Shown: piece after piece, positions 13,423 through 30,454 of the stretch | Numbering within the stretch: the stretch's first letter is position 1 | How the letters are laid out: each line of letters starts with the position of its first letter | Program-made: the position numbers and the translations under genes | Notes under the pieces: generated by a model | Databases searched by the model: none | What the model was told of the DNA's origin: nothing | What the model saw: the letters and a program-made list of their open reading frames with translations, nothing else | Source: an uncultured Gammaproteobacteria bacterium | GTDB taxonomy: Bacteria; Patescibacteriota; Patescibacteriia; Patescibacteriales; XYC2-FULL-47-12 | Reading direction: 5' to 3' | DNA length: 32,685 nucleotides | Assembly (NCBI GenBank): GCA_964413295.1 | Contig: CAYPRN010000003.1 | Location: forward strand, 1-32,685

Positions 13423-13462
13423 GTTTAGTTGATTAGTTACTTAGTTAATCAGTTGCTTAGTT
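13423..13462. repeat. left arm of inverted repeat enclosing the four-helix-bundle gene
   Basis: GTTTAGTTGATTAGTTACTTAGTTAATCAGTTGCTTAGTT (TTAGTTA word family). It partners 13818..13860. Confidence 0.6.
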
Positions 13463-13817
13463 TTTTATTGTTTACTGATTTTTTGTTTTTTAAAAACTTA
13501 ATATAACCGTTTATACCTTTTATTAATTCAATATATTTTTCTACAGTAAAATTTTTTTGATATGCTCTTTCAATTCCACTTTTTGTTTCTTCTGCTTCAC
13601 CTCTAGCTATATATAAATGATTTATTTTTGTACCAAATGAATATTTGCCATAACTTTCTGCAATATTATTTGGCACCGAAGAAGATGATCTTTTTAATTG
13701 ATCAATACTTCTATATTTTTCTTCTTTTGGAAATTTTTCATCGCAAACTCTATAAACAAAAACTTCTAATCTAACAGCCATTTTATAAATCTTTAAATTT
13801 TCTAAACCTGTAGCCAT
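13449..13817 (-). CDS. four-helix-bundle protein (23S rRNA intervening-sequence protein family)
   Basis: 122 aa. Family hallmarks: LKIYKMAVRLEVFVYRV...FPKEEKYRSIDQLKRSSSSVPNNIAESYG...ARGEAEE. Confidence 0.8.
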   Translation of the reverse strand: MATGLENLKIYKMAVRLEVFVYRVCDEKFPKEEKYRSIDQLKRSSSSVPNNIAESYGKYSFGTKINHLYIARGEAEETKSGIERAYQKNFTVEKYIELIKGINGYIKFLKNKKSVNNKKLSN

Positions 13818-14838: not shown

Positions 14839-14976
14839 TGTCATTGCGAGGCCGTAGGCCGTGGCAATCCCGTGAGGATTAAATAATGGTATTAACAAAG
14901 TATCTTATTAACACTCACGGGATTGCTTCGCTTCGTCCAGCCCCTCGCGAGGAGCTGGACTTCGCTCGCAATGACA
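14839..14976. repeat. GTCATTGCGAG...CTCGCAATGAC palindromic repeat with nested hairpin
   Basis: TGTCATTGCGAGGCCGTAGGCCGTGGCAATCCCGTGAGG ... CTCACGGGATTGCTTCGCTTCG[GTCCAGCCCCTCGCGAGGAGCTGGAC]TTCGCTCGCAATGACA. A related copy is at 19067..19151. Confidence 0.75.
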
Positions 14977-16482: not shown

Positions 16483-16845
16483 TTATTTTCTCGCAACTTT
16501 ATCTAAATTATCAATCTCTTTCCAAAGCATAGCGCATAATTCTTCAGCCATCTCCAATCCTATAAGATAATTTTCTTTACTTAAATATTCTTCTATAAAA
16601 GAAAAATATAATAAATATTTTGATTCTTTCAAGGAACCGAAGGAAATCTCTAAAAAATTTAAACGTACTAATGGTTTTTTTCTAGCATAACCTTCAATAT
16701 AATTTAAAACGACTGATATAGATGCTCTGCGAATTTGTGAAACAACTCCATACAGCTCACTTTTTGGAAAATCTTTAGTAACTTTATAAACAAAATGTGC
16801 ATATTTGTCCATCTTTTCAACTAAACTTTTTTGATAACTATTCAT
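16483..16845 (-). CDS. four-helix-bundle protein (23S rRNA intervening-sequence protein family)
   Basis: From MNSYQKSLVEKMDKYAHFVYKVTKDFPKSELYGVVSQIRRASISVVLNYIEGYARK... (120 aa). The 41-codon N-terminal extension in the track is a translated repeat arm. Confidence 0.8.
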   Translation of the reverse strand: MNSYQKSLVEKMDKYAHFVYKVTKDFPKSELYGVVSQIRRASISVVLNYIEGYARKKPLVRLNFLEISFGSLKESKYLLYFSFIEEYLSKENYLIGLEMAEELCAMLWKEIDNLDKVARK

Positions 16846-16858
16846 AACAAGATTATTA

Positions 16859-17428
16859 TTACTTTTTCTTTGTTTTTTTGCTTTTTTGTTGTCTTGTTTT
16901 TTTATTGTCTTGTTTTTTTGCTTTTTTGACACTCTTCTTCGCCACACTAAAACTCCCCTCACTAGCATTTTCTAAATTCAAGAAATCTTTCACTTTCATT
17001 TCTATAGAATGATTTACACCACCAGAACTAAACACAGCTTTTTTGGTCTTTGCTAGAGCTTTATCTATAATCACTGGCAATTTATACAAATTACCAAAGG
17101 CGCTGACAGTTCCATTTTTTATTTTCAAAGCATCCTGCATAACTTTTTCCCCAGGAATTTTCACTACTTTTACATCTTTTTGTTTCAATTTGCTAACATT
17201 TTTTTTCACTTTTTCTAAGTCTAGATTCTTATTAGCCGGCAAAAGCACTAAAAAATAGTCTTTATCTGCTTTCACTACTAAAGACTTGGCAATCTCTTCT
17301 AATTTTTTCCCCATGGTCATAGCCACGTCATAGGCAGTATAGACTGTTTTATGCTCTATAATATCATATGGCACACCCGCTTTTTCTAAATATTTAATAA
17401 CTTTTTTTGGTAACTTTTTTTTAGACAT
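16859..17428 (-). CDS. YbaK/prolyl-tRNA-synthetase-associated (aminoacyl-tRNA deacylase) domain protein
   Basis: From MSKKKLPKKVIKYLEKAGVPYDIIEHKTVYTAYDVA...KSLVVKADKDYFLVLLPANKNLDLEKV...SGG. YbaK/EbsC-like layout. Start moved to 17428. Confidence 0.7.
   Translation of the reverse strand: MSKKKLPKKVIKYLEKAGVPYDIIEHKTVYTAYDVAMTMGKKLEEIAKSLVVKADKDYFLVLLPANKNLDLEKVKKNVSKLKQKDVKVVKIPGEKVMQDALKIKNGTVSAFGNLYKLPVIIDKALAKTKKAVFSSGGVNHSIEMKVKDFLNLENASEGSFSVAKKSVKKAKKQDNKKTRQQKSKKTKKK
16864..16928. repeat. right arm of inverted repeat, overlapping the 3' end of the ybaK-like CDS
   Basis: TTTTTCTTTGTTTTTTTGCTTTTTTGTTGTCTTGTTTTTTTATTGTCTTGTTTTTTTGCTTTTTTG. On the coding strand it encodes the Lys-rich tail KKAKKQDNKKTRQQKSKKTKKK. 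Confidence 0.6.
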
Positions 17429-17438
17429 ATATTTTATC

Positions 17439-17512
17439 GCGCAACACATAACATAAGAGCACATAACGCTAAATAATGGCATGTTATGCGTTACACGTTA
17501 TGCGTTATGTGT
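17439..17512. repeat. intercistronic word-hairpin (CATAACGC family)
   Basis: GCGCAACACATAACATAAGAGCACATAACGC-loop-GCATGTTATGCGTTACACGTTATGCGTTATGTGT. Same family as 20324..20400. Both lie about 10 nt upstream of a start codon. Confidence 0.65.
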
Positions 17513-17644
17513 ATATGTATTATACCCTAATTACCTATCTTAAGCAAAACCATTGACTTATTTTTAAAGTCATAATAACATTAGAGCTAATCCCGAGAGT
17601 TCGGGACTGTTTTTTAAAATTCCACAATCAATGGAGGATTGATT

Positions 17645-17848
17645 ATGAAGAAATTACTGATTATCACATTGTTAGTCTTAATATGCTTAATTATCATTCC
17701 AGAGATATTGAACACGGATGAGGCTAAAATTTCATCTAATCATAAAGATGAAAATTCGCCAAAAACTCCAAAGAAAAACGAATTTCCTTTGGCTACCATA
17801 CCAGTAGTACCAGAAATACCTAGACTAGATGGAAAAGAAAAATATTGA
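17645..17848 (+). CDS. small membrane-anchored/secreted protein
   Basis: 67 aa starting at ATG 17645, preceded by GGAGG at 7-nt spacing. N-terminal hydrophobic helix, then a polar Pro/Lys-rich tail. Confidence 0.45.
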   Translation: MKKLLIITLLVLICLIIIPEILNTDEAKISSNHKDENSPKTPKKNEFPLATIPVVPEIPRLDGKEKY

Positions 17849-17873
17849 CTTGTGGAAAAAATTTAGTTAAAAT
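17845..17873 (+). promoter_or_regulatory. near-consensus sigma70-like promoter
   Basis: TTGACT-17 nt-TAAAAT. It overlaps the stop codon of the preceding small gene. Confidence 0.55.
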
Positions 17874-18044
17874 AAAGACAGATAGTTCCTTACAACTAGT
17901 ATATTTACGCTACAAAAATTATGCTTCATTCTGCTTGAGAAAGGAGAATAGGAAGTTAAAGTATTTTTTCACAAGCATAAAGCGTAAACATGCTGGTATA
18001 TTCGACGACACATTCGATATTTGTGAAAGCACAGGAGAAAAATC

Positions 18045-18095
18045 ATGCCCACACATGGACCCCCCTCCGACAGTTTTTCAGTGATCGATTCCTAG
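18045..18095 (+). CDS. micro-ORF 1 (16 aa, MPTHGPPSDSFSVIDS), speculative
   Basis: AGGAGAAAAATCATG is a perfect SD plus spacer plus ATG. Confidence 0.25.
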   Translation: MPTHGPPSDSFSVIDS

Positions 18096-18394
18096 GCCGA
18101 ATGGCGGTGTGAACAATCATGCAACTAAATCTAAATGCTGTAAGTGGGGTTGCCCTAAGAGATGTTGCGGTATTGTAACACAATTCCATAACACCGAGGG
18201 AACCCTAACTAAAAACATATTTTTCGAGAATAGAAATTAATAGGAAAAGATTAGTCGGAAAAAACAGGTCAGACCCTAAAACTACAAGGGTGCCTGAAAA
18301 AATTAAAATTCCGCTGTCTTAAATTCTGCTAATTTCTGTTCACCTTGGTTATAACCCTCCGGAGATATTTCCCCTAAGAATAAGGAGAAAAATC

Positions 18395-18445
18395 ATGATA
18401 CGTGGTTCCCCTTTTACGAGCTTTTCGCTCTCTACGCTACGGTGA
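18395..18445 (+). CDS. micro-ORF 2 (16 aa, MIRGSPFTSFSLSTLR), speculative
   Basis: Same 14-nt SD/start module. The peptide aligns with micro-ORF 1 over xGxPxxSFS. Confidence 0.25.
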   Translation: MIRGSPFTSFSLSTLR

Positions 18446-18794
18446 TGATACTGTACTGATACTGTATAATTTTTCAACGGGATTTATGATCTTTTCGTAA
18501 AATCTAAATTCTGTTCACGAAAAATTCTAACATCGAGGTTAAAAATGCAACTGAAATATCCCAATTCCATGGTCATCTCTGCTTAAAACACTACATAGCA
18601 AGATGACCGGCAAAGATTATAGACATGCCTACGAATTCGCTGAATGCCAAAAAGGAGTAATTTCATACTACGAACAGGAAGATACGTAAAGGGAGATGGT
18701 TGAGAGGGGTGGTGACACTCCCTTAAACGCGAATAAAATTTCGCCCAGAAAATCGTGGCCAGAAAACCTCAAGATGAAAACTGGGAGAAAAATC

Positions 18795-18971
18795 ATGAAT
18801 CGAAAGTTCACTGATCGGACCGCTCGCGGAAGCCCGTCTTTGGCTTCCGCCGTCGTCCTCCAAAAAGAAAACGGTTCAACAACCGAAAACACTTCCACGT
18901 CCGGTGTCGTCGCCATTACTATAGATGGGATGACCGGTTTCGGGATCGACAAGAGAACCACCTACGTCTAA
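18795..18971 (+). CDS. small ORF 3 (58 aa from MNRKFTDRTARGSP...), speculative
   Basis: Same 14-nt SD/start module. It is the in-frame 3' part of track ORF 18696..18971. About 50% GC, and an antisense ORF of similar length is also open. Confidence 0.3.
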   Translation: MNRKFTDRTARGSPSLASAVVLQKENGSTTENTSTSGVVAITIDGMTGFGIDKRTTYV

Positions 18972-19014
18972 AAAAGATCAGACGAGGTCTAATCCCGTCA
19001 AGGAAGTACCACAA

Positions 19015-19053
19015 GGGGGCAACTTGCTAAAACTGCAAGCTCTGCCCCTTTTT
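19015..19053 (+). terminator. strong intrinsic terminator
   Basis: GGGGCAACTTGC-TAAAACT-GCAAGCTCTGCCCC followed by T5. Confidence 0.7.
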
Positions 19054-19066
19054 AATTTTCTACCTA

Positions 19067-19151
19067 CTGTCATTGCGAGCCGTAGGCGAAGCAATCCCGT
19101 GAGAAATATTGAAATATTCACGAGATCGTGTCGCTTCGCTCGCGATGACAG
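19067..19151. repeat. GTCATTGCGAG...CGCGATGAC palindromic repeat
   Basis: CTGTCATTGCGAGCCGTAGGCGAAGCAATCCCGTGAG...CACGAGATCGTGTCGCTTCGCTCGCGATGACAG. Confidence 0.75.
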
Positions 19152-19227
19152 TGAACCACAAAAGAACGCTTTACAACGTTCTTTTTTTATTTATTATTTT
19201 ATTATTCTAGAAAAAATCCATTCCTTT

Positions 19228-19326
19228 TGTCATTCCGGGCGTAGTGAAGCGAAGACCCGGAATCCAGAAAATATATATAAAAAAACAAATTTTTATTTCT
19301 GGATTCCCGCTTTCGCGGGAATGACA
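19228..19326. repeat. GTCATTCCGGG...CGGGAATGAC palindromic repeat
   Basis: TGTCATTCCGGGCGTAGTGAAGCGAAGACCCGGAATCCAGAAA...TTTCTGGATTCCCGCTTTCGCGGGAATGACA. Track ORFs 19024..19350 and 19202..19411 are translations of these repeats. Confidence 0.75.
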
Positions 19327-19379
19327 ATAAAGCATAGAACAGTAGTGTAAAACAAAAAAATTTAGAAATGACAGTTAAT

Positions 19380-20315
19380 TTAAAACCTAACCGGCATTGG
19401 CTGTTTTTCATTATTATCTAAAGCTTTCTTTTCTATACATTGATACCCAGCATCATGCTCCCAGTTGCTGGCAAAATAATCTTTGCTTTCATAAGGATCA
19501 TTATCGTTAATATTAGATCGCTGAAAATCAGTGCAAAGTTCATATTTTTTCGTATCTAATATTTTAAACTCAAATATCTTCTTAGTTATTGGATTTCTTA
19601 AATCATCTTCAGCAATGTAATCTACTGCTTCTTTGACTGCTTCTAATGATTCTGGTAATTTATTCTCTTCAGTATAATATTGCTGGACAGCGTTTTCAAT
19701 AATGCTTAAGCGATTAACAACTTCATTATCAAAACGCTTTGCTCTGGCTTCCAATGGCGACTCTACAAATAAAATTCCGCCGATAAAAATTAATGCCGAT
19801 AAAATAATTACTGCGAATAAATAAATTTTATTAACTTTATTTTTTTCTCCTTCAATTTTTTCTCGCTTAATATCATGCAAATAATAATAAAAAATAGCTC
19901 CGGCAATAATTAGCACTGTCAATGCTTTTAAAATAAATTTTAAAGTCAATTCTCCATTTAAAAAATTAAAAATCGTGCCGATTGCCCATCCACCCATGGT
20001 TAAGGCAGTCACTAAAATTATCAAATAAGTCAGCCATTTTCTGATCGCTGAATCTTTGTCTAAAACGCCTGTAAATAAATTTTTATTTATCTGCCAGGCG
20101 GTCGTCAGATAAACCGGGGCCGAAACAATCATCGCGGCAATGGCATAGCGCAATAAATTAACATCATAGCGCATACTGTAATTTTCTACGATATCGGCGA
20201 TATTTTTATTAATAACCTGAAAGACAACCACGCCGGCAAAAATAGCGAAAAATGCTAACGACACTAGTGATAGCAAATATAAAAATGTAAACTTGGCTGT
20301 ATTGTTGTTTGACAT
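19380..20315 (-). CDS. multi-pass membrane protein with soluble C-terminal domain, function unknown
   Basis: 311 aa from MSNNNTAKF. About five hydrophobic helices, then a Cys-containing C-terminal domain. Possibly DUF5671-like, but that is my recollection only. Confidence 0.55.
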   Translation of the reverse strand: MSNNNTAKFTFLYLLSLVSLAFFAIFAGVVVFQVINKNIADIVENYSMRYDVNLLRYAIAAMIVSAPVYLTTAWQINKNLFTGVLDKDSAIRKWLTYLIILVTALTMGGWAIGTIFNFLNGELTLKFILKALTVLIIAGAIFYYYLHDIKREKIEGEKNKVNKIYLFAVIILSALIFIGGILFVESPLEARAKRFDNEVVNRLSIIENAVQQYYTEENKLPESLEAVKEAVDYIAEDDLRNPITKKIFEFKILDTKKYELCTDFQRSNINDNDPYESKDYFASNWEHDAGYQCIEKKALDNNEKQPMPVRF

Positions 20316-20323
20316 ATATTTAT

Positions 20324-20400
20324 AATCGCATAACACATAACTTAAAACGCATAACGCTAAATTATAACACGTTACGCGTTATGCGTTGTGCGTTTATGCG
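20324..20400. repeat. intercistronic word-hairpin (CATAACGC family)
   Basis: AATCGCATAACACATAACTTAAAACGCATAACGC-loop-ACGTTACGCGTTATGCGTTGTGCGTTTATGCG. Confidence 0.65.
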
Positions 20401-20471
20401 TATTTGTATTATAGCATTAACTGTTATAACAAAAAAGGGCTTAATTATAAACCCTTTTCACTATTTACTAT

Positions 20472-29048: not shown

Positions 29049-29315
29049 TCACCAAAAAATAACTAAAATATCCCCACCAAATTCTGGTTTCACCTCACTA
29101 TCAGAACAAAAGAATCTGTTTTTTATTTCTTCGGCCACTTCTTCTGATTTCACAACTCCTGTAATAATGACTGATCCGTTTTTATAATTTTTTACCGGAG
29201 TTCTACATCCAAATTCATTAAAAGCCACTTCTACTTCCATAATATAATCGCAACTCGCCACTTGCCCGTTGTCAGGATTTCTTACTTCAACTGTTACTTT
29301 TGTTTTTTTGCTCAT
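29049..29315 (-). CDS. small protein, island paralogue C (88 aa), function unknown
   Basis: Strong SD (AAAGGAGAAAGAACATG). Its N-terminus KVTVEVRNP resembles EVSVEFVERP of ORF 30456..30830. Its C-terminus LVIFW resembles CVFWP of ORF 29643..29903. Confidence 0.55.
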   Translation of the reverse strand: MSKKTKVTVEVRNPDNGQVASCDYIMEVEVAFNEFGCRTPVKNYKNGSVIITGVVKSEEVAEEIKNRFFCSDSEVKPEFGGDILVIFW

Positions 29316-29375
29316 GTTCTTTCTCCTTTACCCCGTGCCTTTCTTAAAAGGCTGGGTTGACTTAAATTAAAGAAC

Positions 29376-29411
29376 AAAAAAAACTGGCTCCCGCCGTTAA
29401 GCGGAAGCCAG
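29376..29411 (-). terminator. attenuator terminator (regions 3:4)
   Basis: The RNA reads CUGGCUUCCGC-UUAACG-GCGGGAGCCAG (11 bp) followed by U8, between the leader peptide and ORF 29049..29315. Confidence 0.65.
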
Positions 29412-29437
29412 TCTTGTTTCCCTAATGATGTTTTACT

Positions 29438-29539
29438 TTATTTTTGTGGCAAAACACCACCAAAACCTACACTTCCGCTTTTGCGGAAACCATAAAACCC
29501 AAAAAAGTTAAATGTAGATTTTGCTAGTGTCTTATTCAT
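29438..29539 (-). CDS. candidate leader peptide, 33 aa, Phe-rich (MNKTLAKSTFNFFGFYGFRKSGSVGFGGVLPQK)
   Basis: Hand-translated ORF starting about 4-11 nt after the -10 box, so possibly leaderless. Five Phe and one Tyr within codons 10-18. It overlaps the region 1:2 hairpin. Confidence 0.4.
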   Translation of the reverse strand: MNKTLAKSTFNFFGFYGFRKSGSVGFGGVLPQK

Positions 29540-29542
29540 ACC

Positions 29543-29591
29543 TGTGGATATATTAACATATATTTTTAAAAAGCGCAAGAGGTTATCCACA
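29543..29591 (-). promoter_or_regulatory. promoter bracketed by an inverted repeat of DnaA-box-like 8-mers
   Basis: Minus strand reads TTGCGC-17 nt-TAATAT (29578..29550). TGTGGATA (29543..29550) and TATCCACA (29584..29591) flank it. Confidence 0.5.
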
Positions 29592-29636
29592 AAAAAGAAA
29601 ATAGCCGTTTTTTCAATAGAAAATAACGGCTATTTT
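29591..29636 (-). terminator. intrinsic terminator after ORF 29643..29903
   Basis: The RNA reads AAAUAGCCGUU-loop-AACGGCUAUUU followed by UCUUUUUU. Confidence 0.6.
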
Positions 29637-29642
29637 AATAAA

Positions 29643-29903
29643 CTAAAGTACATGATTAAATCTTTTTGGCCAAAACACACAATCTGCTATTTCCACTTCT
29701 TCAGGATCAAGACCTAACGCTATAATAGCGCCATTAATCGCTTTCTTTTTTGCTATTTCTTCATCTTCATCAACGGCGCTACCGCTACATGACTCTTTTT
29801 TGCCTTCAGGACTAACAACCACACCAACTCTCCATTGTTCTCCATCAGGTCTAATATTACCATCTGTAATTCTCACTACTGTTTTCTCTTCAATAGCGCT
29901 CAT
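29643..29903 (-). CDS. small protein, island paralogue B (86 aa), function unknown
   Basis: Start set at MSAIEEK (29903), which has GGAGGTG at 5-nt spacing. The longer track version would translate the 33-nt palindrome. Shares the SGxx..A.K.AI.GA motif with ORF 30456..30830. Confidence 0.6.
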   Translation of the reverse strand: MSAIEEKTVVRITDGNIRPDGEQWRVGVVVSPEGKKESCSGSAVDEDEEIAKKKAINGAIIALGLDPEEVEIADCVFWPKRFNHVL

Positions 29904-29934
29904 AATTTCACCTCCGTTTGTTTGATTATTTTTT

Positions 29935-29967
29935 CTTGTCCGATAAGCAAATTGCTTATCGGACAAG
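29935..29967. repeat. 33-nt palindrome, copy 2 (31 nt upstream of the paralogue B start)
   Basis: CTTGTCCGATAAGCAAATTGCTTATCGGACAAG, with perfect 15-bp arms. Confidence 0.85.
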
Positions 29968-30032
29968 CTGACCTACTATCCTTGAAGTACCATTAATTCC
30001 TGTACCGCGCCAGTCAATTTTTTTCCCGTCTT

Positions 30033-30218
30033 TCACATGCACAAAATCAGGCCATTCAAAATTTGATCCGCCTTTTTTGATTCAACTAAAAACTTTATTC
30101 CCGGCGCGTTCAGCCCTTGCGCATATTCTTCAGCAGTAGATAAATTAGGAAATGTAGCCTGTAAAAAAGCCTCACTTGACTTTGAAGTAACTCTATAAAC
30201 AGCTGTAGGATGTCCCAT
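30033..30218 (-). CDS. small hypothetical protein (61 aa)
   Basis: Strong SD (AAAGGAGAAGAAAAATG). Third gene of the three-gene operon. Confidence 0.45.
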   Translation of the reverse strand: MGHPTAVYRVTSKSSEAFLQATFPNLSTAEEYAQGLNAPGIKFLVESKKADQILNGLILCM

Positions 30219-30232
30219 TTTTCTTCTCCTTT

Positions 30233-30454
30233 CTAAGAAGAAATAATAGTGAAAGGATCAATATTTCTTACAATGGCAGGTATTATTCTTTTCTGCAAGT
30301 CCTTAAGGTGAAATTGTAGTGATTCTCTTTTCCCTGAAGCAATTTTTTTTTGCGACAGCTTTTCTTCTATCGCTGTCGCCTGATCGCAACAACGTAGATA
30401 CTTGTCATACAAAACATCTGAACCGTTTAATCCTGATTCTTTATTTGCGCTCAT
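30233..30454 (-). CDS. small helical hypothetical protein (73 aa)
   Basis: Strong SD (AAGGAGAAATAAAATG). Its start lies 1 nt after the stop of the upstream ORF, which suggests translational coupling. Confidence 0.5.
   Translation of the reverse strand: MSANKESGLNGSDVLYDKYLRCCDQATAIEEKLSQKKIASGKRESLQFHLKDLQKRIIPAIVRNIDPFTIISS

Follow-up and report, generated by a model that had tools for sequence, protein, structure and literature searches.

What kind of element fills the 1.95-kb gap between the tRNA_edit and DUF5671 genes of a Falkowbacteria-like genome, and does it work through protein, through RNA or through both? The DNA in question (the window) is a stretch of 32,685 nucleotides from contig CAYPRN010000003.1 of assembly GCA_964413295.1. 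It is part of a Candidatus Falkowbacteria-like genome of the Patescibacteria, or candidate phyla radiation (CPR), and its AspRS is 90% identical to that of the Falkowbacteria metagenome-assembled genome L001. An original prediction, made from the letters alone, described an orphan unit of about 1.2 kb (17845-19053) that runs from a promoter to a terminator around three exact copies of a 14-mer, and read it as a large modular structured RNA, a polycistronic micropeptide locus, or decaying tandem paralogues of a 58-aa gene. The feature is an accessory transcription unit of about 1.5 kb (17553-19053), of which that stretch is the 3' three-quarters. Its contents are a tiny putative secreted protein, a family of very short related frames with a shared ribosome-binding site, and conserved RNA hairpins. 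The explanation we prefer, at about an even chance of being right, is that this is a lineage-variable small-protein operon with a structured leader that bears upstream open reading frames (uORFs) and would be controlled by ribosome-dependent (translational) attenuation.

Extent of the cassette

The unit was delimited by comparison with related genomes. The closest relative, L001, has a gap of just 390 nt at this position and lacks the unit; compared with it, the window holds about 1.56 kb of extra DNA (about 17569-19128), and the L001 junction keeps a -35 box and half a palindromic element. L091, whose DUF5671 protein is 71% identical, carries a homologous unit in the same slot (nhmmer E 2e-28, 1.5e-22 and 5.6e-16), and five identical copies of that unit were found in other samples. 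The more distant L107 (DUF5671 47% identical) has the same architecture in a looser form. Between the window and L091 the proportion of synonymous differences (pS) in the flanking genes is 0.65-0.69 (synonymous differences of 62-69%), which is saturated, so blocks of the gap that can still be aligned are under selection or constraint. Two parts of the gap fall outside these blocks: 17850-18217, which holds the originally proposed promoter, the first 14-mer copy, the first of the frames behind the 14-mers (ORF1) and a 19-aa frame beginning MQL, is absent or unalignable in L091, and 18605-18736 has no counterpart there. Copies of the region that are 100% alike occur in contigs of at least six samples, and the arrangement is therefore no assembly artefact.

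At the left end, a sigma-70-like promoter on the plus strand (TTGACT-17-TAACAT, 17553-17581) has the counterpart TTGACA-17-TAATAT in L091. The surrounding block is 80-85% identical in the two lineages and stands back to back with the tRNA_edit upstream region. Judged by its sequence, this is the promoter of the whole cassette, including a gene for a 67-aa protein, and it lies about 300 nt upstream of the site proposed originally. That earlier site (TTGACT-17-TAAAAT, 17845-17873, plus strand) fails as a left boundary: matches of this kind are at chance density (15 promoter-like hits, 10.2 expected), the 67-aa gene overlaps it with its stop codon, and it has no counterpart in L091, where the homologue of that gene reads through the position. 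The unit probably starts elsewhere. Because the conserved promoter and the 67-aa gene are included, the unit comes to about 1.5 kb and is not gene-free. Directly after the promoter and before the Shine-Dalgarno sequence (SD) of the 67-aa gene, in the 5' untranslated region (UTR), lies a terminator-like hairpin with a U-run (17591-17616, plus strand). It is limited to the window lineage, L091 having no counterpart, and could be a 5'-UTR attenuator or stabiliser.

The 67-aa gene (17645-17848, plus strand) is called as a gene in public assemblies. Its product has a hydrophobic N-terminus that resembles a signal peptide or transmembrane (TM) segment by eye (no predictor run), and homologues of 98 aa in L091 (48% identity, E 8e-20) and 92 aa in L107 (33%, E about 1e-6) share its motif FPLATIPVVP in the form (F/M)P(L/Y)ATIP(V/I)VP. 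The ratio of nonsynonymous to synonymous differences (pN/pS) is 0.42, and the G+C content of third codon positions (GC3), 0.27, is host-like. No Pfam or PHROG family matched the protein, and a search of 5.8 billion protein clusters returned only self hits.

The strong terminator of the original prediction is borne out at the right end (19015-19053, plus strand), with a hairpin at 19015-19048 and a T-run to 19053. Hairpin and U-run are present in the window, L091, L107 and the related genomes L090 and L116; the arms differ in sequence (ACUUGC/GCAAG versus ACUCAU/AUGAGU) yet still form the hairpin, with the tail UUUUUAAUUUU in common. Just upstream, the 3'-UTR motif AAUCCCGUCAAGGA (18991-19004, plus strand) aligns with AAUUCCCGUCACGGA in L091.

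Short frames and hairpins inside the unit

The 14-mer GGAGAAAAATCATG is present in exact form at 18034, 18384 and 18784, as originally described, and the frames behind the three copies read as claimed, with 16, 16 and 58 aa (ORF1, ORF2 and ORF3). With up to two mismatches allowed it has 5 hits in the window against 0.41 expected, a number that none of 100 shuffles reached; 15 nt are common to copies 1 and 2 and to copies 2 and 3. The other recurring words were likewise found (ATGCAACTRAAT at 18119 and 18545, and AAATCTAAAT, TTCTGTTCAC and CAATTCCAT), and the 8-mers and 9-mers shared by units 1 and 2 exceed those in dinucleotide shuffles modestly (P about 0.01). A tandem DNA repeat with units of 350-400 nt was considered and rejected, gapped local alignment of the three units yielding just the 14/15-mer. 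By their sequences, ORF1 and ORF2 resemble paralogous copies of the N-terminal part of ORF3, and the 14-mer would be repeated because they share that frame's strong initiation region. It is conspicuous because most housekeeping genes here lack an SD: strong SDs are rare among the housekeeping genes of this genome, and most of those in the window have no recognisable one. Elsewhere in the window, a minus-strand region at 29049-30454 contains small orphan open reading frames (ORFs) of 88, about 86, 61 and 73 aa, each with a 14-mer-like SD of the AGGAGAA/GGAGG type.

ORF2 (MIRGSPFTSFSLSTLR, 16 aa) lies with 14-mer copy 2 at 18384-18445 on the plus strand, its initiation region being an SD GGAG, 7 nt and ATG. 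It is kept in L091 as MTTRGSPSFSFSLSSLTR (18 aa) behind the initiation region GGAGAAAAATTATG, with the stop at the equivalent position of the peptide alignment, indels of 3 nt and synonymous changes (CCT/CCC, TCT/TCA, CTA/CTC). Serine makes up 4 of the 16 residues in the window and 6 of the 18 in L091, in mixed codons and without a run. In both lineages the ORF2 SD is predicted to pair with an upstream UUUCCCC (UUUCC stretch). The reading of the short frames as decaying tandem paralogues thus survives in part: ORF1 and ORF2 do resemble the start of ORF3, but decay does not describe the conserved ORF2. ORF1 (MPTHGPPSDSFSVIDS, 16 aa, with 14-mer copy 1 at 18034-18095, plus strand) belongs to a duplication specific to the window lineage, and its region is matched weakly by the ORF2 module of L091 (nhmmer E 0.001). 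A further micro-ORF of 19 aa (MQLNLNAVSGVALRDVAVL, 18119-18178, plus strand) begins with the word ATGCAACTAAAT, is preceded by GAACAATCATG and is paralogous to the beginning of the 13-codon uORF described below; it is not conserved in L091. Since 17850-18217 is not conserved, this module 1 appears from the alignments to be a window-lineage duplication of a module of the form "initiation region plus RGSP frame ... MQL frame", which would explain the recurring words in shuffled order.

ORF3 encodes a 58-aa Ser/Thr-rich protein (MNRKFTDRTARGSPS...DGMTGFGIDKRTTYV, 18795-18971, plus strand) and is open in L091, where it has 53 aa, 46-50% identity and four indels, all multiples of 3. Its RGSPS is kept through codon changes (GGA/GGT, AGC/AGT, TCT/AGC), and its pN/pS of 0.50 is the lowest among the six frames. 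The codon-level comparison proposed with the original prediction therefore came out in favor of coding, with few homologues to draw on: the ORF2 and ORF3 frames are kept, with indels in threes and synonymous changes. ORF3 is preceded by a near-invariant leader of 54 nt that includes 14-mer copy 3 (18744-18797, plus strand; 94.5% identical to L091 over 55 columns). The L091 leader has a 1-nt insertion in the spacer, and because of it the leader is not coding in frame with ORF3. A CCCAG in the leader can pair with a CUGGG that overlaps the ORF3 SD, and this helix appears in the consensus fold of window and L091. In the 3' UTR, the UCCCG of the motif at 18991-19004 can pair with a CGGGA inside ORF3, a helix (columns 218-222 / 277-281) that is invariant in the two.

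All three 14-mer frames share the (H/R)G(S/P)P core pointed out originally, which recurs in L091 and, as RAGP, in distant L107, where the main ORF of the unit (81 aa) begins MFIRAGPF. The core is spelled CAT GGA CCC CCC, CGT GGT TCC CCT, CGC GGA AGC CCG, CGC GGT AGT CCG and AGG GCC GGT CCG; the use of different codons across paralogues and lineages favors selection on the peptide or its translation over an RNA motif. An R-[GA]-[SG]-P core is conserved in five ORFs from three lineages, at residues 3-6 in ORF2, 11-14 in ORF3 and 4-7 in the L107 ORF. The pattern M-x(0-12)-R[GA][SG]P occurs in 0.15% of 34,095 ATG ORFs (about 1.4 Mb of loci compared), and among the Falkowbacteria-like loci compared it is found exclusively in these cassettes.

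This core raises the possibility that the RGSP, RAGP and HGPP frames are RAPP-like nascent-chain arrest peptides, stalling with proline in the A site and so opening a downstream structure. Known examples are SecM (RAGP), ApdA/ApdP (RAPP) and ApcA (RAPG) (PMC12992588, PMC10951233), whose cores (RAPP, RGPP, RAGP or RAPG) lie near the C-terminus with the N-terminal adjacent segment in the exit tunnel (PMC12992588). The cassette resembles them in having an Arg-small-small-Pro core, conserved as described, in small ORFs upstream of other frames; the I-R-A-G-P of L107 equals the SecM core, and cores of the RAPP, RGPP and RAGP kinds, which are underrepresented in proteomes, sustain arrest (PMC12992588). 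ORF1 moreover contains G-P-P. Such a G-P-P is a poly-proline motif that needs EF-P. Still, we consider arrest quite improbable here. In ORF2, ORF3 and the L107 ORF the motif is N-terminal (residues 3-7 or 11-14), where described arrest motifs are near the C-terminus, and ORF3 runs 44 codons past it. None of the accepted cores occurs in the window, which has RGSP in ORF2 and ORF3 and HGPP in ORF1, RAGP being confined to L107; RGSP is absent from PMC12992588. The peptides have no signal or TM segment, and neither a protein-localisation gene nor any other gene of the Sec/YidC type follows.

The leader between the two genes also contains structured blocks. A rod-like hairpin domain of about 115 nt (18219-18345, plus strand) is closed by GAAUAGAAAUUA (18228-18239) pairing with UAAUUUCUGUUC (18330-18341), with CCUGAAAAAAUU invariant inside. 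Its fold has z = -3.79 in the window, none of 200 shuffles being as stable, and the L091 counterpart folds alike (z = -2.10) with 9 bp of the outer helix kept. Two-sided changes affect six pairs in the whole tested structure, four of them in the rod, against 3.0 +/- 1.2 in shuffles (11/500). A second hairpin, AACGGGAUUUA / UAAAUUCUGUU with the conserved loop UGAUCUUUUCG (18476-18515, plus strand), keeps all 11 pairs in L091, four of them changed on one side (GU<->AU/GC) and none broken, and its core AACGGG..TATGAT aligns in L107 too. A long-range helix, 18219-18239 / 18505-18525, in which 19 of 21 positions pair in the window, was set aside because its outer half is not kept in L091.

Immediately downstream, the SD CGAGGT and a 13-codon uORF, MQLKYPNSMVISA (18534-18586, uORF 18545-18586, plus strand), are kept in L091 (MQMRSDSSVVSAV) and L107 (MRKCTLEGSTLIS) with identical SD and length, and the peptide is poorly conserved. 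A hairpin, GGUCAUCU / AGAUGACC (18571-18608, plus strand), covers the 3' end of the uORF, its 5' arm being the last codons. This hairpin is predicted in the window (z -2.1), in L107 (z -2.4, arms GGUUCAAC / GUUGAACU) and in L091 (GGUCA / UGACC). To keep length, SD and 3'-end hairpin but not the peptide looks like the pattern typical of regulatory uORFs. L090 has a micro-ORF, ATCGAGGT...ATGCAACTGAAAT, followed by the terminator.

Could the whole stretch instead be one large modular structured non-coding RNA, in which the ORFs and SD-like 14-mers are incidental or serve as RNA motifs such as ribosome- or protein-binding sites? Composition speaks for it. The elevated 3' G+C noted originally is real (0.46-0.50 over 18600-19050 against 0.33 for the window, in an AT-rich genome), as is the antisense ORF pair that came with it, 18696-18971 on the plus and 18668-18961 on the minus strand. 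The strongly negative folding z-scores of some segments, the pair-preserving changes, the high GC3 of ORF3 in two lineages and the near-invariant 54-nt block fit as well. Conservation points the other way. One third of the stretch (17850-18217), together with 18605-18736, is missing in L091. The GC-rich hairpins singled out by the original prediction (GCGGAAGCC-N7-GGCTTCCGC at 18826-18850, and 18901-18937) exist in the sequence but are lost in L091: the codons beneath them change synonymously, and the encoded RGSPS stays. Different codons spell the peptide motif, every ORF3 indel is a multiple of 3, and Rfam searches at E<=5-10 matched no family in any of the three lineages. We therefore judge a single large RNA improbable, although parts of the stretch do carry conserved structure. 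Long GC-rich intergenic regions of AT-rich genomes are used to find structured non-coding RNAs (GC-rich intergenic region, GC-IGR, and DIMPL approaches; PMC6429828, PMC8723152). Set against the targets of such screens, the cassette is alike as a long intergenic region with elevated G+C and locally stable conserved hairpins, and unlike in that none of 4,227 Rfam families matches, the GC-rich part is conserved along frames, and the whole is a mosaic and not one fold. The case shows that an AT-rich genome may contain a long GC-rich gap that is not a single large RNA.

Proposed translational attenuation and its alternatives

The explanation we favor combines these elements into one operon, 17553-19053, in which the 67-aa secreted or membrane protein would come first and the 58-aa Ser/Thr-rich ORF3 last. 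The long leader between the two genes would interleave short translated frames (ORF1 and ORF2 of the RGSP type, and the 13-codon uORF) with conserved hairpins, which are predicted to pair with the SDs of ORF2 and ORF3 or to include the 3' end of the uORF. Given hairpins placed in this way, translational attenuation is the mechanism we hold most likely: a ribosome that translates one of the short frames, or pauses there, may remodel the leader and so set ORF3 output or RNA stability. We infer both the translation of these frames and their coupling to ORF3. Leader ORFs as such are in place: ORF3 is preceded by ORF2 and the 13-codon uORF, both of which L091 retains, and L107 has the uORF as well.

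Several observations weigh against this interpretation. With a comparison set of just two full homologues and a loose third, neither covariation nor codon tests are powerful; the rod helix exceeds shuffles just modestly (the 11/500 given above), and a pN/pS near 0.55 is also seen in a stop-containing frame of a non-coding block. Within these two or three sequences no alternative-pairing scheme, either terminator/antiterminator or SD/anti-SD switch, was shown to be conserved. One candidate pairing predicted in the window, between the uORF SD (GAGGUU) and AACCUC of the 54-nt leader, was not used because a single L091 substitution breaks a pair. The GC3 of ORF3 is 0.60-0.64 in both lineages against 0.18-0.30 for host genes, which is odd for an ordinary resident gene and likely reflects nucleotide-level constraints or a peculiar origin besides coding. 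Gene callers left ORF1-3 uncalled on long contigs. Finally, the cassette is dispensable, since the nearest relative, L001, lacks it entirely.

The coding evidence serves equally for a rival proposal, in which each short frame is a small-protein or micropeptide gene in its own right, uncoupled from the others in regulation, and promoters, UTRs and stabilising hairpins of the ordinary sort account for the conserved non-coding blocks. The function would then lie in the products themselves, for example in a joint action of the secreted 67-aa protein and the RGSP peptides. Each frame has a strong SD of its own, and in other lineages the same slot holds small secreted Thr/Ser-rich ORFs (132 aa in L002, 362 aa in L124, 99 aa in L129). 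Of the original interpretations, the polycistronic micropeptide locus comes closest, inasmuch as ORF2 and ORF3 are conserved as frames together with the core. On the other hand, the uORF peptide is not conserved whereas its length, SD and 3'-end hairpin are, a hydrophilic peptide of 16 aa has no obvious autonomous role, and no modifying, export or immunity genes lie nearby. We regard fully independent genes as rather unlikely. For related reasons, a precursor cluster for ribosomally synthesized and post-translationally modified peptides, a defence role and a mobile context were rejected, the neighbours being housekeeping genes and the surroundings free of modifying, export and immunity genes. 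A type I toxin was rejected because ORF1-3 are hydrophilic and Ser/Thr-rich, without a hydrophobic (TM) stretch.

Under the attenuation reading, the cassette is best compared with leader-peptide attenuators of the ermC/cat and trp/his/thr types. As in those systems, very short ORFs with strong SDs of their own stand in a long leader, the 3' end of a uORF lies in a hairpin, downstream SDs are predicted to be paired, length and position are kept over peptide sequence, and a terminator stands at the end. In contrast to them, no known regulated enzyme or resistance gene is present, the sole downstream frame being a 58-aa orphan; no conserved switch of either kind has been demonstrated; and there is no single-codon run, though serine accounts for 25-33% of ORF2. 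Two further peculiarities stand out: of the several uORFs, two are paralogous to the N-terminal part of the main ORF and use the same initiation region, and the cassette sits in a hyper-variable slot. Dual-function RNAs that carry small ORFs, such as SgrS/SgrT, RNAIII/hld and SR1/SR1P, offer another parallel. The cassette, too, would be a terminator-ended transcript (predicted) with conserved structure and a short conserved coding frame, but it is much longer, has several frames and comes with no identified base-pairing target or seed.

Database searches agree with the label of orphan. With 4,227 Rfam families at gathering score, the whole window gave two tRNAs and nothing else; at E<=10 the region 17400-19450 gave sub-threshold chance hits only, and the L091 and L107 units nothing consistent. 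ARAGORN found no tmRNA. The absence of known-RNA signatures claimed from the letters thus extends to family searches in three lineages. A longer intact ORF in homologues, which would have made this a plain protein gene degraded in the window, was looked for; no homologue has one, L091 shows the same layout of short frames, and no Pfam family matches. No single stop-codon reassignment opens a long frame either. Decay of a gene for one of the larger accessory proteins that other lineages have in this slot was rejected as the origin, tblastn with those proteins detecting no similarity in the non-coding part. The 58-aa frame in its 91-aa form (91/58-aa ORF) gave self hits only in the 5.8 billion clusters, and an exhaustive HMMER scan with the 91-aa ORF against 1.84 billion representatives found only itself; the cluster members and encoding contigs of these ORFs all belong to the same strain at 100% identity. 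Neither blastn against phage and plasmid collections nor PHROGs gave a match, so that no similarity to phage or plasmid DNA places the unit in a mobile element, phage or plasmid. In IMG/VR, a 17-mer of the conserved leader had one match, dismissed as chance, in an unrelated high-GC phage contig. The cassette is a new, unannotated element of a familiar general kind, namely a small-ORF operon with a uORF-bearing structured leader.

The slot beside aspS in other lineages

The gene order AspRS-DUF5671-[gap]-tRNA_edit-ScpA is kept across Falkowbacteria-like contigs, and the size of the gap between DUF5671 and tRNA_edit ranges from 0 to 2,070 nt among relatives. In the window the gap is bounded by the tRNA_edit (YbaK-like) gene at 16859-17428 and the DUF5671 gene at 19380-20315, both on the minus strand. 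The housekeeping neighbours (ScpB, ScpA, a 23S-rRNA-intervening-sequence protein, tRNA_edit, DUF5671, AspRS, RecO and RuvX) are all on that strand, and the cassette is opposite to every one of them. Within 10 kb on either side all genes are housekeeping, including ScpA/B, aldolase, TIM, AspRS, RecO, RuvX, Adk, Map and Na/Ca exchangers.

The slot varies even between close strains. L001, L090 and L116 are 99% identical through AspRS and DUF5671 and have three different slot alleles: L001 has no unit, and L116 has a different SD-led micro-ORF of 20 aa with its 3' end in a hairpin, followed by the same terminator as in L090. The three-allele pattern reflects either a strain-level replacement hot spot or assembly joins induced by repeats. 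It also bears on the proposal that the cassette is non-functional hot-spot DNA, made of remnants of duplicated gene starts and horizontally acquired GC-rich fragments in a recombination-prone slot. The range of gap sizes, the three alleles, the lack of a unit in the closest relative, the foreign-looking composition and the lineage-specific module 1 would all fit. We nevertheless think this very improbable, as blocks up to 95% identical persist despite saturated synonymous sites, and at least two lineages keep frames, SDs, hairpins, promoter and terminator jointly, while three keep the architecture.

Other genomes have different small units in the slot. In L093 (positions about 196-231 of the gap, as in L122) there is an Asn-rich micro-ORF, MKNNNNNNNSA, and in L120 (gap positions about 232-267) there is MVKNQNQNQNK. 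Each is led by a strong SD, reads on the other strand from the flanking genes and has hairpins and an intrinsic terminator downstream, and an AsnRS-like gene is found between AspRS and DUF5671 in these genomes (L093/L122 and L120). They look like orphan amino-acid-sensing leader peptides without a downstream gene. L117 has an HGPG micro-ORF, and L094 a hairpin RNA of roughly 90 nt. Larger frames also occur, both Thr/Ala/Ser-rich: a 362-aa ORF in L124/L126 (gap positions 312-1400) and a 132-aa ORF in L002 (gap positions 764-1162), where a micro-ORF additionally lies behind GGAGAAAAAATCATG. Their G+C is 56-61% (60% in L124) in AT-rich genomes, with a GC3 of 0.62 measured for L002 alone; their N-termini are hydrophobic and signal-peptide-like by eye, and no Pfam or PHROG family matched.

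Taken together, the slot suggests a general, unexplored class of small leader-like units. A bolder idea, to which we assign a slim chance, is that the slot beside the aspS (in some lineages asnS-like) operon hosts undescribed stand-alone ribosome-sensing leader units of CPR bacteria. Their short ORFs, for example the R-[GA]-[SG]-P frames of the window, L091 and L107 and the Asn-rich frames of other lineages, would act via the nascent peptide or codon supply and control either a small protein encoded downstream or transcription that reads through, antisense, into the convergent aminoacyl-tRNA-synthetase operon; if so, the repeated 14-mer would be a shared entry site for a family of translational sensors. 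Genomes of the CPR/Patescibacteria are small and poorly understood, and their post-transcriptional regulation and small proteins are almost uncharted. The locus provides a concrete conserved example, with its exactly repeated initiation site, Arg-small-small-Pro micro-ORFs, near-invariant 54-nt leader and hairpins. Should the short frames be ribosome sensors, regulation by leader or arrest peptides would extend to the CPR and to N-terminal motifs. Should they not be, the locus would still exemplify an accessory hot spot that varies between strains and houses tiny secreted proteins, possibly of importance to an epibiotic way of life.

Further repeated elements were noticed around the slot. Two paralogous genes for 23S-rRNA-intervening-sequence proteins (four-helix-bundle, bAvd-like) lie within 3 kb of each other on the minus strand (13449-13817 and 16483-16845), and neither a reverse transcriptase nor repeats of a diversity-generating retroelement were seen near them. 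Palindromic repeats occur at 19066-19152 and 14839-14976 (CTGTCATTGCGAGC ... GCTCGCGATGACAG; GTCATTCCGGGC ... CGCGGGAATGAC), with a second type at about 19230-19330, and metagenome contigs of the window strain repeatedly break off inside palindromic elements (19095, 19063 and 19002). An element of about 110 nt with GTTATGCGTTA-type repeats lies upstream of tRNA_edit (17415-17524), is 85% conserved in L091 and recurs with 80% identity upstream of DUF5671 (20302-20413). It is probably a shared promoter or operator module.

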